Counted from the stretch's first letter, positions 17,830-24,492 are shown. The stretch is 27,409 bases of DNA from Candidatus Thorarchaeota archaeon (GCA_048882385.1 JBHLRQ010000034.1:1-27409), one strand, 5' to 3'. Program-made: numbers and translations. The notes: a model not told the origin generated them from the letters alone.

Positions 17830-18129
17830 ATGGGAGATTTCTTCCTGACATACGATGAGTCGGGCAAAGCGTATCTCAGAAGACTGTTCTATTTCAATGT
17901 ACTATTCTATCCAGTAATGATTCTTGTTGCAGTAGTCTACATGGTCGATATTCTGGTAGTAATCTTTGCAGCTTCCCTCTTGGCATGTGGTTCCCTTATC
18001 TACGCTGCCTATTTCATTATCAGAAATCCACCGATGGAGTATGGAGAAGATCTCTCTGCTTTAGCATCGTTGGAAATGGATGAAGAGGATGGAGGAAACT
18101 CCTCAACATCTCAGTCTGGATCTTTTTGA
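17830..18129 (+). CDS. Small 2-TM membrane protein
   Basis: GGTGG RBS-like element upstream, two TM helices; the last ~15 codons run antisense through repeat R5. Confidence 0.6.
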   Translation: MGDFFLTYDESGKAYLRRLFYFNVLFYPVMILVAVVYMVDILVVIFAASLLACGSLIYAAYFIIRNPPMEYGEDLSALASLEMDEEDGGNSSTSQSGSF

Positions 18130-18249
18130 CTACCACAATGACCTCTGGAAGAACGGTGAAGATGCCATAAACTATACAAAAGTCTAGAAAATTGAGAATT
18201 GGAGAGGCGGGGTTATTTTTGATGACCTCGATGATATCAGTTGACGACA
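18085..18249 (-). repeat. R5: diverged copy of the etfA 3' end plus hairpin
   Basis: 18104-18238 is colinear and gap-free with etfA 23293-23427 (hand count 90/135 nt, ~67%). Translates DIIEVIKNNPASPILNFLDFCIVYGIFTVLPEVIVVVKKIQTE. Confidence 0.9.
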
Positions 18250-18313
18250 AGTTCAGGTTGGTATAGAACAATAAGGATATGAGCAAATTATTCCGCGTGC
18301 TACGGAAATCGAT

Positions 18314-18799
18314 TTGGTGTGTAAGTTGAATCAAGACACAACGCGTGTGGGGAGATTCATGCTGTTCATTTTTGTGGCAGCTTTGATTGCTCCACACACT
18401 TTCGAAATCTCAAGTCAAACAATTCCTGATTATTCTTATACACGTTATAGTTTGATTTTAGTAATATTGACTCTCTTTTATGAATCAGGTACAACTATTG
18501 CTGGACAATACAGTACTGGATTTATTCTGCCTCCTACCTCATCAGTTCTATTGAATGTGCTGACTTTGGTAATCAATGTTTCAATAGTATTGAGTCAGTG
18601 GGGGTACGCGAAAGGTAGAATTTCAAGGAAGAATGTCCTGTATATAATTGGGATAGCTCTGTGTGTACATGTACTTCTGCTGATCGGCTTTTTCTCATAC
18701 CAGTTGGATGCAACAGCAAGTGTACTGGCAATACCTCTCCCGATTTTCCCCGTAATTAGTGCTCTAGTGGTTCTTCGGGGTATGATTTCAAATTCATAA
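18314..18799 (+). CDS. Hypothetical 4-TM membrane protein (paralog family)
   Basis: QWGYAKGRISRK loop; C-terminal IPLPIF; start uncertain (18314, 18317 or 18359). Confidence 0.65.
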   Translation: MVCKLNQDTTRVGRFMLFIFVAALIAPHTFEISSQTIPDYSYTRYSLILVILTLFYESGTTIAGQYSTGFILPPTSSVLLNVLTLVINVSIVLSQWGYAKGRISRKNVLYIIGIALCVHVLLLIGFFSYQLDATASVLAIPLPIFPVISALVVLRGMISNS

Positions 18800-18810
18800 A
18801 CTGAGAGAGC

Positions 18811-18841
18811 GAAGATAGGGATGAAGTCTCTATCTTTCAGC
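18811..18841 (-). repeat. R4: short remnant of the etfA tail and hairpin
   Basis: GAAGATAGggatgaagtctCTATCTTTCAGC versus R1 GAAGATAGagaatgttcttCTATCTTTCAGC: same length, identical ends (encodes AER*). Confidence 0.75.
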
Positions 18842-18893
18842 TGTGCCCAAATCTTTGATGCTCTCTCCAGTGCATATTATGTCAAAGAAGAGT

Positions 18894-21801: not shown

Positions 21802-21909
21802 GATGCAACTCGCTCCTTCGAAAAAAGCTAGTCTTCACTTTGTTTCAGTTACAAAGGAGTTAAAAAGATAATAGGATATATGTTAACTAAAATTGGTTAG
21901 CTATTAAGG

Positions 21910-22395
21910 TTGTGCGTGCTCTCTGTGAAGTCTATCCATTTCAAGTTCCCAACCAAGCGGCAGGAATTCATATGGCAGAAAAGACGACAAAGAATTCCTC
22001 CATCGATAATAGCTAGAGAATTGAAGGTTTCGCGTGCGTTAGTGAGCAAAACGCAACGAATTGCCGAGGATCGAATCGAAAAAATCTTGTTGCACACGGC
22101 AGCCGCAAATCGGATTAATGTCCAGCACATCAGCTCGAGATACGGTTTTGCTGTAGGTCACTGTCCTGCAAACAAATCTGAAACATACATTGTATACTCG
22201 CCTATGCTGGGAACCCAAGTATGGTTCAGTCATGGAGGAAACTGTGGGAGTTGCATTGAGCAGCCTGTATGCGAGAAGACAATCCACACACTTGCGCATG
22301 AATGGAATCTTCCACTTCGGAAAGAATTACCAGCGACAGAAGCAGCTGAGGAGCTCTTCATAGGAATAATGAGGCGACTGAAATGGATCGAATAG
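21910..22395 (+). CDS. HTH DNA-binding protein with a C-terminal His/Cys metal-binding motif
   Basis: PSIIARELKVSRALVSKT HTH; QVWFSHGGNCGSCIEQPVC; exact start uncertain. Confidence 0.75.
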   Translation: MCVLSVKSIHFKFPTKRQEFIWQKRRQRIPPSIIARELKVSRALVSKTQRIAEDRIEKILLHTAAANRINVQHISSRYGFAVGHCPANKSETYIVYSPMLGTQVWFSHGGNCGSCIEQPVCEKTIHTLAHEWNLPLRKELPATEAAEELFIGIMRRLKWIE

Positions 22396-23156
22396 ATACA
22401 AGATCATTATATGAGATGGTCAAAGAGTGGACTGAACAAAGGTGGGAGGCAGTCCGTTACAATCGCATTTCCGATGCGTTGTGGAATTCTCTTGAGGCTT
22501 GTGGACTCATTGAGGGACCATTTGGCGATTCCGTAACTCTGCTTGAGTCCTGTATTGTTGATTCAAACGAGGCTTTAGAAGCAGGTCTATTGAGTGAGAA
22601 TCAAGCATTAGACAATCTGAAAGAACTTCTAGAGAATGACGACTTTGCTTTAGGCGCTCAGATCATAGAAGTGACTGTCGATACAAATCCAGTATGCCGA
22701 ATATCAAACATCGACAAGTTGTTACAGGAGAATCGACCTATTGGTCCTCAGAAACCTCAATGGTGGAAACGAAGCGTTCGTAGTTTCTGGTTTTCTGTGG
22801 GAGTCTTTTCCTTTGCTACAATGGCTATTATTTATGTAATAATGATTAACCTTGGAATACTACCATCCACACAGTTCCTCTATGCTATAGCAATTGGTAT
22901 TCCAATGTACGCAATGGGTTACTATTTCCGCACGGTGGCAACCAAGAGAATGTGGAGAGCTGTGTTTATTATGCTTGGAGCTGGTGGTATAGGATTCTGG
23001 TGCTTAGCGCTCCCGATTGTATTACTCTTAGGTCCATACATTCGATTGATTCCTTTCGGGTTAGGCATGCCACTCACGTTCATTCCGACTGTGGTTATGG
23101 GAGCGTTCATGGGTGATTGGATTGGAAATCGACGAGATTATAGACCCTATATGTGA
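22383..23156 (+). CDS. Membrane protein: acidic soluble N-domain plus 4 TM
   Basis: Overlaps the HTH gene by 13 nt (coupled); four C-terminal hydrophobic helices. Confidence 0.7.
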   Translation: MDRIDTRSLYEMVKEWTEQRWEAVRYNRISDALWNSLEACGLIEGPFGDSVTLLESCIVDSNEALEAGLLSENQALDNLKELLENDDFALGAQIIEVTVDTNPVCRISNIDKLLQENRPIGPQKPQWWKRSVRSFWFSVGVFSFATMAIIYVIMINLGILPSTQFLYAIAIGIPMYAMGYYFRTVATKRMWRAVFIMLGAGGIGFWCLALPIVLLLGPYIRLIPFGLGMPLTFIPTVVMGAFMGDWIGNRRDYRPYM

Positions 23157-23238
23157 TGTTCGAGAAATTATTTTGGATGCAATGACTTTCATCTGAAGAT
23201 GAGGATGAGAGCTAGAATTTCTAATAATCCCATATTTA

Positions 23239-23281
23239 GGAAAAGGGTGGAATCACCCAGCTGTTTCCAAAACTGGGTGAT
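23239..23281 (-). terminator. etfA terminator hairpin
   Basis: ATCACCCAG(23252-60)/CTGGGTGAT(23273-81), followed on the minus strand by CCCTTTTCC. Confidence 0.65.
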
Positions 23282-23292
23282 ATCTTTTTCAA

Positions 23293-24492
23293 TTATCTCT
23301 CAGCCTGAATCTTCTTCACAGCCTCGATTATTTCAGGTAGGACTACGAATATATCTCCAACTATGCCAAAGTCTGCAATCTCGAAGATTGGAGCCTCTGG
23401 GTCCTTGTTGATGGCCACGATGATATCACTACTCGACATTCCAGCTAAGTGTTGGATCGCTCCAGAAATCCCCAGAGCAATGTAGAGCTTTGGGCAGACT
23501 GTCCGACCCGATTGTCCAACCTGTTGTGATGGTGGAAGCCACCCGAGGTCGACAATGGGACGTGAGCCACCAATTGCAGCGTCAAGAAGTTCTGCGAGTT
23601 GTTTTGGAAGTTCAAGGTTTGATGGGTCCTTGATTCCACGACCACTACAGACGATAATATCTGCTTCTTCGACAGACTTCATTCCTTCTACAGTTTCATT
23701 GACTGTTTCTAATACCCTAGTACGGATTTGGACGGGGTTTATTGTCATCTCAACCTTCTCAATCTCACCACTACGTGAAATGTCAGGTTCCTCGGGTTTG
23801 AAAACATTAGGTCGCACTGTTGCCATCTGTGGTCGAGTATATGGCGAAATAATTTCAGCCATAATGTTTCCACCGAAAGCAGGTCTCGTTTGGACCAGCT
23901 GACGTTCGTCATCAATATCAAGACCAGTACAGTCTGCAGTGAGTCCAAGAGCCATTCTCGCAGCAACACGGGGTGCAAGGTCACGGCCATTACTTGTTGC
24001 ACCATATAGAACTATAGCTGGCTTGTTTGGAGCGATCAGAGTGTTTAGGGCTATAGTGTAAGCATCTGTCGTATAGTGATCGAAAATCTTCTCATCCACA
24101 ACATAGACCTTGTCTGCCCCATGATGAATCAGAGTTTCTGCCTGAGACTCAATCTCATAACCGATAAGGATTGCAACCAAGCGCTCGCCCAATTTGTTAG
24201 CAAGCTCACGACCTTTCGTCACAAGCTCAAGACCAACTCCTCTAAGGCGTCCGTCGTTGGTTTCACACCATACCCAGACATCCTTGTATTTGGCAATTGC
24301 TTCTTTGTCGATGGCTTTCCGTTCAATCTTGATAGCGTTGTCCCTACAGACTTCCTCGCATGATCCACAGAGGACACACTTGTCCAGGTCAAATTTGACC
24401 TTGTCACCATCCTTCTCGATAGCTCCAAAGTTGCAGACCTTAGGACATAACATGCACCCAGTACAGGCATCTCTGTCATAAATCAATGTCAT
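23293..24492 (-). CDS. etfA: Electron transfer flavoprotein alpha subunit with an N-terminal 2[4Fe-4S] ferredoxin domain
   Basis: [11 protein letters not shown] and [61 protein letters not shown]. Confidence 0.95.

Follow-up and report, generated by a model that had tools for sequence, protein, structure and literature searches.

Copies of the etfA 3' end separate small gene cassettes in a Thorarchaeota genome: a candidate accretion island

Downstream of etfA in a Candidatus Thorarchaeota genome, five displaced copies of the 3' end of this gene (hereafter tails) alternate with small modules of one or two accessory genes. Such copies exist in related genomes as well, where they recur with different cargo and have a common 5' boundary; in one relative the site is empty. 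We propose, with a confidence slightly above even, that the locus is an accretion island formed by serial insertion at fixed positions in the etfA 3' end. This suggests that organisms of the group acquire new genes again and again at the tails of housekeeping genes, by means of a putative enzyme acting in trans.

Sequence data and searches

The window is an entire contig of 27,409 nt (Candidatus Thorarchaeota archaeon, GCA_048882385.1 JBHLRQ010000034.1:1-27409) from a metagenome-derived assembly, labelled G000, of 256 contigs and 3.7 Mb (95% complete, 4.9% contamination); metagenome-assembled genomes were the sole source of data throughout. A tail profile built on 14 tail units (13 from relatives plus the window copy at 21667) was run across the whole 3.7-Mb genome, and stop-equivalent positions were taken from anchored tail sequences. 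Start points were surveyed with a profile extending 330 nt upstream (n = 29 copies), and 86 family genomes were searched with the 55-aa etfA tail as query. Protein scans used a Pfam cut-off of E <= 0.01. Transmembrane (TM)-like segments are hydropathy counts only, and those listed partly overlap.

The etfA locus and its displaced tails

The target gene is intact, with Pfam matches to ETF (1e-52) and ETF_alpha (9e-34) and an N-terminal 4Fe-4S domain (Fer4), and its orthologues within the genus are 75-89% identical. The upstream gene is named etfB from its position and from its family, F1, which is found in 17/17 oriented etfA loci. From etfB downwards, the window contains:

24494-25282, minus strand: etfB, ORF, conserved upstream neighbour
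23293-24492, minus strand: etfA, intact 399-aa target gene
23235-23451, minus strand: T0, active tail, codons 349-399, stop at 23293-23295, own hairpin (~23254-23283) and T-rich run
21802-23234, no strand assigned: module 1 cargo, ORFs for a 257-aa membrane protein (22383-23156, plus) and a 161-aa weak-HTH protein (21910-22395, plus)
21637-21822, minus strand: T1, displaced long tail, 49 codons, frame intact, TAG at 21667-21669, type-A hairpin
20850-21500, minus strand: module 2 cargo, hemerythrin-domain protein, 216 aa
20760-20828, minus strand: T2, short decayed tail, ~13 codons and hairpin, stop changed to TTG at 20786
20153-20764, plus strand: module 3 cargo, ORF for a 203-aa membrane protein
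19836-19930, minus strand: T3, short tail, last 12-14 codons, TAA at 19887
18894-19682, minus strand: module 4 cargo, BPL_N/GATase-like protein, 262 aa
18806-18842, minus strand: T4, remnant, last 4 codons, TAG at 18830, type-A hairpin
18314-18799, plus strand: module 5 cargo, ORF for a 161-aa multi-TM protein of family F13, convergent with etfA
18079-18249, minus strand: T5, oldest long tail, 47 codons, stop changed to TTG at 18104
15465-18078, no strand assigned: distal variable interval, membrane proteins of 228 aa (16915-17601, minus), 161 aa (16099-16584, plus) and 167 aa (15516-16019, plus)
14865-15464, plus strand: conserved distal anchor, 93-aa membrane protein (15183-15464) and 66-aa histone-like protein (14865-15065)

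An earlier note on this DNA had placed five same-strand tail copies here, with module spacings of 1626, 881, 899, 1057 and 726 bp. BLASTN, TBLASTN and the profile bear out both the positions and the spacings, the copies at 20786 and 18830 being short and weak. T0 (nhmmer match 23445-23235, E 2e-47) is followed by a hairpin with a predicted fold of -18.2 kcal/mol, whose sequence is unlike that of every displaced copy. T1 is the best preserved of these in a BLASTN of the whole 3.7-Mb genome (21668-21801, 80.6% over 134 nt, E 5e-28) and is read by TBLASTN over 49 aa (78%) without a stop; its differences from T0 fall 8/8/19 on the three codon positions, a pattern which fits two once-functional alleles. 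T5 is more diverged (BLASTN 18109-18249, 68% over 141 nt, E 1e-14; nhmmer E 1e-18; TBLASTN 47 aa, 55%). An ORF at 18020-18397 on the minus strand was rejected as a gene, being this decayed copy read through. T3 matches at 19882-19930 (78% over 50 nt, E 6e-4; nhmmer E 3e-3) and has a hairpin resembling that of the active tail in the relative G022. T2 (69 nt, profile E 9e-4 genome-wide) and T4 (37 nt, E 7e-3, the weakest of the five) are missed by BLASTN. A further TBLASTN tail match covers 22 aa (55%, E 0.66).

The six best genome-wide profile matches all lie on the minus strand of the window contig (21643-21721, E 9e-18; the true tail, 4e-10; 18080-18158, 8e-10; 20760-20828, 9e-4; 18806-18842, 7e-3; 19888-19930, 1e-2), and we therefore consider the copies at 20786 and 18830 to be real in spite of their shortness. 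Elsewhere in the 3.7-Mb genome no etfA tails were found, the next minus-strand profile match having E 0.14 and the best BLASTN match on other contigs E 0.22. The variable interval proved larger than the extent given earlier (18085-23427): it covers ~7.8 kb between the etfA stop and 15465, reaching the conserved gene for the 93-aa membrane protein. Its distal part (15465-18078) holds no detectable tails, and the proteins there have no Pfam matches; G001 and G012 also have families F31 and F32 from this part in their etfA intervals, where F32 is inverted. The anchor families F5 and F6 are each found in up to 10 oriented genus loci, and the histone-like protein matches CBFD_NFYB_HMF at E 0.005 only, below the cut-off.

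Cargo of the modules

Two of the cargo assignments made previously are upheld by domain matches, namely the hemerythrin (PF01814, 4e-12) and the BPL_N protein (PF09825, 5e-14). The helix-turn-helix assigned to module 1 corresponds only to a sub-threshold HTH_23 match (E 0.026) of the 161-aa protein, and the membrane proteins of modules 1, 3 and 5 are backed by hydropathy counts alone (3, 3 and 6 TM-like segments, respectively). Neither the module 1 proteins nor the 203-aa protein of module 3 has a Pfam match at the cut-off. Genes do point both ways as had been noted, the strands over modules 1 to 5 being + + - + - +. Relatives have homologues of module 1 (68-70% aa identity) on other contigs, and in the stretches retrieved no etfA tail stands beside them. 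The F13 gene directly follows a type-A hairpin tail in the window and in G020, G004, G018 and G002, the window and G002 genes having 81% nucleotide identity. More generally, in 47 of 52 tail units the sequence that follows folds into a hairpin of greater stability than its shuffled versions have on average, and the hairpin sequences differ between tails.

Recurrence and variation in relatives

At least one extra same-strand tail, with differing cargo, is present at 11 of the 19 etfA loci of the genus. Over the family, 66 of the 86 genomes match the 55-aa tail, and 18 of these 66, from 7 genera, do so at least twice. Synteny is conserved for etfB-etfA and for F5-F6-F3-F4-ABC, and between these blocks gene content and order vary, the interval from etfA to the anchor ranging from 60 bp to 7.8 kb. 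Many cargo genes were found in a single genome, and the cassette families F13, F17, F22 and F28 in more than one clade. Where cassettes are shared their order differs among genomes, with one inverted, and the Kelch and hemerythrin cassettes are each flanked by tails in two genomes with differing neighbours.

In nucleotide identity between species, some cassettes exceed their flanking core genes. The hemerythrin cassettes of the window and G002 are 86.7% identical (versus 68-79% for four core genes), the F29 cassettes 94.5% (versus 79-83%), the Kelch cassettes 79% (versus 72-73%), and the BPL_N cassette has 78% identity to those of G006 and G009 (versus 67-74%). In the F17 family, identity follows the divergence of the core genes, as expected under vertical descent.

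The 5' boundary of the copies is clustered: in 19 of the 29 the start lies 141-167 nt ahead of the stop, and no copy begins further upstream. The pair formed by G024 and its sister G015 locates the break. G024 has the empty site, its etfA stop lying 60 bp from F5, and G015 carries a one-gene insert. Their gene bodies are 91.6% (~92%) identical and their active tails 75.3%, the drop starting at nt 1045, directly after codon 348. The displaced copy of G015 is 91% identical to the active tail of G024 and 75% to that of G015 itself; the active tail of G015 is thus foreign and the displaced copy native.

Tail copies with clustered start points also trail the actin and ahcY genes, and each of actin, ahcY and etfA has its own preferred start point. 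One tail-copy pair adjoins a pyruvate-kinase fragment. Insertion with the same anatomy at all of these would call for several specificities, a point against the proposed serial insertion.

Search for a recombinase

That the modules lack a recognisable recombinase, as had been stated before, is borne out: among 77 proteins in or beside arrays, no recombinase or transposase family matches at E <= 0.01, and no integrase (tyrosine, serine, DDE or Cas1) is found in an element or tandem partner. The 95% complete G000 genome has no match to PF00589, PF00239, PF01548, PF01797, PF01867 or PF00078, and hence neither a reverse transcriptase nor a Cas1 match; the control for the PF00589 search was positive in 14/14 genomes. 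Within the genus, PF00589 is present in 9 of 28 genomes only, leaving 19 with no tyrosine recombinase. None of these matches lies on an etfA contig, and no etfA tail was found near them in the 18 loci retrieved.

Proposed mechanism and alternative explanations

We propose that the etfA 3' end took up segments of ~0.7-1.6 kb in succession, at fixed positions within it. Each segment would bring one or two accessory genes together with a replacement etfA end, consisting of the last 51 codons or of only the last ~14, with its own stop and a hairpin with a T-rich run. Counting upstream from the stop, the main insertion site would lie at 153-156 nt, immediately behind codon 348, and a second one at ~42 nt. 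The incoming tail would keep EtfA intact, and the previous tail, pushed downstream, would decay there. As each insertion displaces the old tail, the array would read from newest to oldest as T0, membrane protein and HTH, T1, hemerythrin, T2, membrane protein, T3, BPL_N, T4, 4-TM protein, T5. The incoming DNA may have been circular and joined by a site-specific enzyme supplied in trans, and later recombination between tails probably deletes, shuffles and exchanges cassettes.

A rather unlikely alternative dispenses with a dedicated recombinase: after one founder duplication, tail-flanked cassettes would loop out through homologous recombination of their two tails and re-enter any etfA tail by Campbell-type crossover, or be swapped from species to species by double crossover, and the boundary would simply be inherited. 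The failure to find a recombinase in arrays or genome speaks for this, as do the tails themselves, which with 45-155 nt at 70-90% identity offer usable arms. G006 and G017 share a 1.7-kb tract of 95% identity whose ends lie within the tails (~-42 in T0, ~-117 in T1), with flanks 60-80% identical or unrelated; it fits homologous exchange with the tails as arms, as in flexible genomic islands that are replaced through recombination in their flanks, but could equally be the same element inserted twice. Moreover, a conserved etfA stretch closely precedes the -156 boundary, so that clustering there is expected anyway for crossovers between diverged genes. What weakens this explanation is that long copies 70-90% alike, with a common boundary, have unrelated sequence directly to the left of it (mutually so in the 11 long copies inspected), since homologous recombination cannot make new junctions between cargo and tail at one fixed nucleotide. 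In G015 the start of the foreign T0 and the resumption of the native T1 fall within ~12 nt at the very edge of homology, so that a homologous crossover would have no arm on the left. The separate preferred start points at actin, ahcY and etfA are a further point against it.

Serial insertion also has to be weighed against an old array, inherited from an ancestor of the genus or family and eroding by differential loss without ongoing capture. The presence of four cassette families in more than one clade, the behaviour of F17 and the decay of many tails agree with this, but we regard it as improbable in view of the hemerythrin, F29, Kelch and BPL_N cassettes that exceed their flanking core genes in similarity, the foreign active tail of G015, the differing order and one inversion of shared cassettes, the many cargo genes unique to one genome, and the still intact 49-codon frame of T1. 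Local duplication, in which the resident tail is copied as foreign or paralogous DNA inserts, through target-site duplication at staggered cuts, replication slippage or template switching, would account for copies of different length having a common 3' end, and templated insertion predicts homologues of module 1 elsewhere in the genomes of relatives, as observed. Duplicates should, however, start out identical and both native, contrary to the 75% and 91% identities of the active and displaced G015 tails to the sister tail; T0 and T1 are followed by hairpins of unrelated sequence, and the genome has no reverse transcriptase or Cas1 match. This makes local duplication very improbable. An artefact of assembly or binning, with collapsed or chimeric strain variants, might be suspected from a 256-contig metagenome assembly with 4.9% contamination in which the window is a whole contig. 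We give it next to no weight: the copies are too diverged (60-81% alike) to mislead an assembler, and contigs from runs of two studies (X4 and X8) span the T0-module 1, module 2-T1 and T3-T2-T1 junctions with 0-9 differences, which argues against an artefact. The same anatomy is also found in separate genomes, from 10 other species of the genus and at 7 loci of other genera.

Comparison with known systems

The earlier note had read the locus as an integron-like array; repeated insertion at the etfA 3' end with restoration of the gene and displacement of its old tail remains our preferred reading, and "integron-like" holds as an analogy only. None of the four observations that the note said would count against it was made: gene content and order differ among relatives, relatives have tail copies too, no copies lie elsewhere in the genome, and contigs of other runs confirm the junctions. 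Integrons and CALINs (attC clusters without an integrase, reported to be enriched in Asgard archaea) likewise have one-gene cassettes that are split by a repeated site and lack a recombinase, with the newest cassette at a fixed insertion point; their recombinase acts in trans, as may be the case here (PMC9668308). The repeat described here differs in being the tail of a coding gene, conserved in sequence and not in fold, and insertion takes place inside a gene that needs restoration; cargo lies on both strands, unlike integron cassettes, which for the most part are promoterless and co-oriented. An IntI-type tyrosine recombinase is not found in G000 (0 PF00589 matches). CALINs lack IntI by definition, so its absence alone does not exclude one. 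An attC site is an imperfect palindrome with complementary R'' (RYYYAAC) and R' (GTTRRRY) 50-150 bp apart; a regular-expression search of both strands of the whole window with this consensus gave 0 exactly complementary R''/R' pairs 52-156 bp apart, a pattern that degenerate attC sites could escape. A casposon, with its Cas1-family casposase, terminal inverted repeats and 14-15 bp target-site duplication, also fits poorly, given 0 PF01867 matches in G000 and repeats that span 37-180 nt and are not identical.

Several features are those of integrative elements: direct repeats copy the target 3' end, and etfA is restored (399 aa, full Pfam domains); the empty site of G024 has its counterpart in a G015 insert bounded by repeats, with a break after codon 348; and a fixed crossover position is common to independent insertions. 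An integrase within the element or a tandem partner was not found. The view that the tail of a metabolic gene is undescribed as an att site in archaea was too strong, as archaeal integrative elements target the 3' ends of protein genes, metabolic enzymes included, and supply a new stop or end. Tandem reuse of sites is known among them, and an empty site in a sister species has served as proof of insertion. These elements encode their own integrase or a casposase, whereas we found neither integrase nor Cas1; their flanking direct repeats are described as considerably shorter than in the integrated elements of other archaea, and the displaced tails reported here reach ~155 nt.

Among bacterial islands, those in tandem at ssrA in Dehalococcoides are site-specific to one conserved single-copy gene and carry adaptive cargo, the target being a tmRNA gene (PMC3146451). 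In the tycheposon islands of Prochlorococcus, successive integrations at the same site push older elements inward and leave partial copies of the target gene as scars, with niche-adaptive cargo; they use seven tRNA gene targets and tyrosine recombinases and often carry replication genes (bioRxiv 10.1101/2020.12.28.424599). By comparison, our targets are protein genes, and we saw no recombinase or replication gene. Nowhere in the literature searched did we find this combination: cassettes that are tiny and have no integrase, tails replaced over up to ~150 nt, and the recurrence of the pattern at several genes.

In streptococci, ICEs, IMEs and integrase-less CIMEs accrete at the 3' ends of fda, rpsI and rpmG, CIMEs being 1.2-13 kb in size and accompanied by gene-less microCIMEs; many such units have cargo yet lack a recombinase and rely on one provided in trans (PMC7563491). 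As in our array, conserved protein-coding genes, metabolic ones among them, are targeted at their 3' ends, and elements pile up in tandem with att repeats derived from the gene end between them. In or next to the streptococcal arrays there are ICEs or IMEs that encode an integrase, and the source regards the CIMEs as decayed remains of these (PMC7563491). In contrast, none of the arrays studied here has an integrase among the 77 proteins, most genomes of the genus (19/28) have no tyrosine recombinase, the units are smaller (0.7-1.6 kb in the window), the replacement spans a long tail of as many as 51 codons with its hairpin, and the host is an Asgard archaeon. We do not classify the array as an integron; its nearest parallel is the piling up of elements without an integrase at the 3' ends of genes.

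Copies of the etfA 3' end in the window

The window is an entire 27.4-kb contig of a 3.7-Mb assembly (256 contigs, 95% complete), and the closest named relatives of its EtfA (78-86% identity) are every one labelled Candidatus Thorarchaeota. Five copies of the end of etfA follow downstream on the same strand (T1 to T5, numbered outward from the active tail T0), with modules of cargo between them. BLASTN against the whole genome recovered three of these copies:

23293-24492, minus strand: the etfA gene itself, intact, 399 aa (domains ETF and ETF_alpha, ferredoxin at the N terminus); follows etfB
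21668-21801, minus strand: tail copy, 80.6% identity over 134 nt, E 5e-28
19882-19930, minus strand: tail copy, 78% over 50 nt, E 6e-4
18109-18249, minus strand: tail copy, 68% over 141 nt, E 1e-14

On other contigs of the genome the best tail match had an E of only 0.22. The copies whose stop-equivalents lie at 20786 and 18830 are shorter than BLAST can detect and were recovered by searching the whole genome with a tail profile built almost wholly from the tails of relatives, whose six best genome-wide matches were the true etfA tail and exactly the five copy sites. Both searches confirm the five-copy array described in the earlier note, which had also given the stop-equivalent positions (21667, 20786, 19887, 18830 and 18104) and module sizes correctly; it had placed the copies rightly, but the variable region extends further than it proposed, down to 15465. 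Translated, T1 reads as 49 uninterrupted codons (78% identity) with an in-register stop, and its differences from T0 fall 8/8/19 on the three codon positions, mostly on the third, as would be expected for two alleles that had both once been working.

A hairpin and a T-rich run lie behind every tail unit, active or displaced. A scan for bacterial-type promoters and terminators (4 terminator-like sites versus 5.5 expected) is uninformative for an archaeon, and we therefore folded the tail ends ourselves: hairpin stability exceeded the mean of shuffled sequences in 47 of 52 tail units. As the hairpin sequences vary between tails, each incoming piece appears to bring a tail, a stop and a terminator-like end. 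An Rfam scan of 14500-25500 (E <= 1) returned no family, only a single chance sub-threshold snoRNA match.

Contigs (not reads) from four of 19 sequencing runs were aligned to the window. In run X8, with a depth of about 16 over the rest of the locus, no contig covers approximately 17305-19870 (the BPL_N module, the 4-TM module, T4 and T5); this hole could be a strain without those modules or a mere gap, and we draw no conclusion from it. One contig of run X13 joins 19843 to 21668, skipping 1824 nt, as a T1-T3 deletion would; with 29 letters on one side, a depth of 3 and 90% likeness it is too weak to count. Loose contig ends in run X4 (at 18904 and 20151) are not assignable and suggest relatives with other neighbours.

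The interval behind etfA in related genomes

The comparison across relatives that the earlier note had proposed found the interval content to differ and the tail copies to recur in genus and family. Seventeen genus etfA loci were oriented and their ORFs clustered. They have a fixed frame, with etfB-etfA on one side and, on the other, a 93-aa membrane protein, a small histone-like protein, an ArsR-type regulator, a 258-aa protein and two ABC transporters. The interval between these conserved sides ranges from 60 bp (in G024, a related genome) to 7.8 kb (in the window), and its cargo of small genes changes from locus to locus: a methyltransferase, a C-N hydrolase, a Kelch protein, an aldo-keto reductase, a DUF6144 protein, hemerythrin and a BPL_N protein, together with many membrane proteins and orphans. 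Extra same-strand etfA tails are found in 11 of 19 genus loci, and also on four contigs without etfA. Across the family, a 55-aa tail query matches 66 of 86 genomes, 18 of which (in seven genera) give at least two matches. With tail copies across genus and family, the window array is one example of a pattern spread through the family.

Homologues of the module-1 genes (membrane protein and weak HTH) lie on other contigs in relatives, with no tail within the 2.5-3.8 kb fetched around them. This says that the module-1 cargo comes from the ordinary gene pool; the homologue positions do not inform the mechanism. A separate case is a contig without etfA (G010:C115), on which two long etfA tail copies lie 17 kb apart (L026 2048-19607) and enclose about 24 genes, including aldo-keto reductases, a metallo-beta-lactamase-fold protein (Lactamase_B superfamily), a HAD hydrolase, PGI and regulators; two further tails lie beyond (L040). 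This pair marks an array of great length or, alternatively, a second site.

Boundaries and origin of the copies

Although the boundary profile reached 330 nt upstream of the etfA stop, 19 of 29 copies start 141-167 nt before the stop and none further upstream, while short copies start about 42 nt before it. To the left of the common boundary, the 11 long copies inspected are bordered by mutually unrelated sequences. The two sister genomes G024, with an empty site, and G015, with one inserted 399-aa gene, form a natural comparison: their etfA bodies are 91.6% identical versus 75.3% for the active tails, identity falling from nucleotide 1045, right behind codon 348, and the displaced copy of G015 is 91% identical to the active tail of G024. 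This pattern indicates that incoming DNA brought a foreign tail which now serves etfA in G015, the native one having been moved aside. The foreign active tail excludes local duplication. Retrocopying, which 5'-truncated copies with a common 3' end might suggest, was rejected on the same ground and because no reverse transcriptase was found in the genome of the window.

Some cassettes are closer between species than the adjoining core genes: 86.7% versus 68-79% for hemerythrin, 94.5% versus 79-83% for a membrane gene (family F29) and 79% versus 72-73% for Kelch.

Proposed insertion and recombination, and the search for an enzyme

We lean towards site-specific insertion by a putative trans-acting enzyme; junctions at fixed points, a foreign active tail and one orientation throughout agree with it. 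Insertion would take place at codon 348 and near codon 386 of etfA, each incoming piece would supply the replacement end, and later insertions would push older units outward. Homologous recombination probably acts at these arrays as well, judging from a 1.7-kb block that is 95% identical between G006 and G017 and ends inside T0 and T1, with flanks that are 60-80% identical or unrelated. A cycle driven purely by homology seems less likely to us, mainly because it is unable to create new cargo-tail junctions at one fixed nucleotide; moreover, a crossover is impossible at the very edge of homology, and yet it would have occurred there in G015. The interpretation in the earlier note is partly supported: repeated insertion gains support from the fixed junctions and the foreign tail of G015, whereas the recombinase was not found.

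Of 77 scanned proteins from such arrays or their immediate surroundings, none matched a recombinase family (E <= 0.01), and searches of the genome of the window for tyrosine and serine recombinases, IS110, Y1 transposase, Cas1 and reverse transcriptase families gave no match. PF00589 is absent from this genome and from 19 of 28 genus genomes, where no Xer-type enzyme is detectable. Such an absence is unusual for archaea, and the control was positive in all four archaeal control genomes. A tyrosine recombinase occurs in only 9 of the 28 genus genomes, in no case on a contig that carries a tail; the 18 loci retrieved around these matches contain no etfA tail. The sole strong match among the recombination- and transposition-related families searched in the genome of the window is a TnpB-like zinc-ribbon domain (contig C94, 10395-10571, 3e-14) within a 571-aa open frame; a second TnpB-like match (C150, E 0.002) is below the cut-off.

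Two proteins encoded directly after displaced tails were considered as the enzyme:

L039 3295-4743 (G024:C67), minus strand: 482-aa protein, directly after a displaced etfA tail
L163 6928-8436 (G015:C254), plus strand: 502-aa protein, directly after a displaced ahcY tail

They have a common C-terminal domain (28% over 183 aa) that lies near NERD and Upx-like nuclease clusters in a protein atlas, which is a lead only. Present in just two arrays, they were not adopted. We also rejected the 11-nt inverted arms of the type-A hairpin, a class found behind several displaced tails (T1, T4), as a dif- or lox-like core, since hairpins differ completely between tails and genera and the boundary that the copies have in common is within coding sequence.

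Other possible target genes

A scan of the genome of the window for local same-strand repeats revealed an anatomy like that of the etfA tails at three other genes:

C21 36709-39085 (L121 3710-6086): actin homologue (PF00022, 3e-132), then a 312-aa membrane gene, then a copy of the last 48 nt with hairpin (82% over 112 nt)
C100 840-6401 (L122): ahcY (AdoHcyase), last 182 nt copied (88%) 4.2 kb downstream
C136 3508-5518 (L123): pyruvate-kinase C-terminal end, two 164-nt copies (90%) flanking a UDP-glucose dehydrogenase gene

The actin tail gives at least two matches in 16 of 28 genus genomes, and of the copies listed, at least 14 share one start in the query, 48 nt before the stop. Actin arrays reach three copies (G015:C244), and their cargo includes a deaminase-domain protein, a radical-SAM/HD protein, a nitroreductase (in two genomes) and a kinase, with no recombinase among the cargo scanned. 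Throughout the family, ahcY copies that comprise the tail alone are common, and most begin close to residues 359-384 of 442. On C100, the ahcY copy is immediately preceded by a second, partial copy of the adjacent flavin-reductase gene. In three other genomes (G174, G156 and G186; L162, L177 and L178), the TBLASTN alignment of full-length ahcY breaks at residue ~372-382, where there is a frame change, a 33-nt insertion or an overlap of 10 residues; such breaks may be scars at the tail-replacement junction. As the first pyruvate-kinase copy sits inside a 91-aa PK_C fragment, both copies may be displaced tails, the gene of their array being located outside this contig. Contig C121 (53-6221, L124) carries a ~100-nt intergenic repeat six or seven times (starts at 53, 928, 1406, 3309, 4085, 5637 and 6113; spacing 0.5-2.7 kb), possibly a further cassette array built on a repeat of another kind.

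A broader reading, which we put forward only tentatively, is that of a general, undescribed gene-capture system in this family: small integrase-less cassettes carrying a spare tail, stop and hairpin would enter the 3' ends of several housekeeping genes at set nucleotides (etfA -156 and -42, actin -48, ahcY about -210, perhaps pyruvate kinase), inserted by a recombinase family unknown to Pfam or by host machinery not known for it, and displaced tails would double as portable homology arms moving cassettes between species.

Significance and comparison with known systems

Asgard archaea are the closest known relatives of eukaryotes and, to our knowledge, very little is known about how they gain genes. 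A cast-off gene end is a simple, repeatable mark of many insertion events with precise ends; it offers a ready marker for flexible gene content in metagenome-assembled Asgard genomes and defined target sequences for hunting the missing enzyme. The tails also offer a model from nature for placing genes after an essential gene while leaving it unbroken. If the enzyme is new, this would be one more recombination system; if plain homologous recombination is at work, the tails illustrate how short, portable stretches of homology can let species swap cassettes even when their core genes have diverged by ~25% at the nucleotide level.

The array had been called integron-like, a membership that does not hold: there is no IntI match and no exactly complementary attC-like core pair in the window, and the genes are in mixed orientation. 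Elements that enter the 3' end of a protein gene and restore it are known from archaea (PMC6563490) as well as from bacteria. In streptococci, CIMEs without an integrase accumulate at fda, rpsI and rpmG (PMC7563491), and tycheposon islands bear scars that are partial target copies (bioRxiv 10.1101/2020.12.28.424599). A metabolic gene tail serving as attachment site in archaea is therefore less novel than the earlier note had supposed, but its small, integrase-less form recurring at several genes was not found described, nor did the literature searched contain a description of gene-tail arrays in Thorarchaeota. The window array works like all three, and the integrase that defines the other families is missing from it. 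What appears to be new is the combination of very small integrase-less units, replaced tails of up to ~150 nt each with a hairpin, and their repeated occurrence, within one Asgard lineage, at several housekeeping genes.
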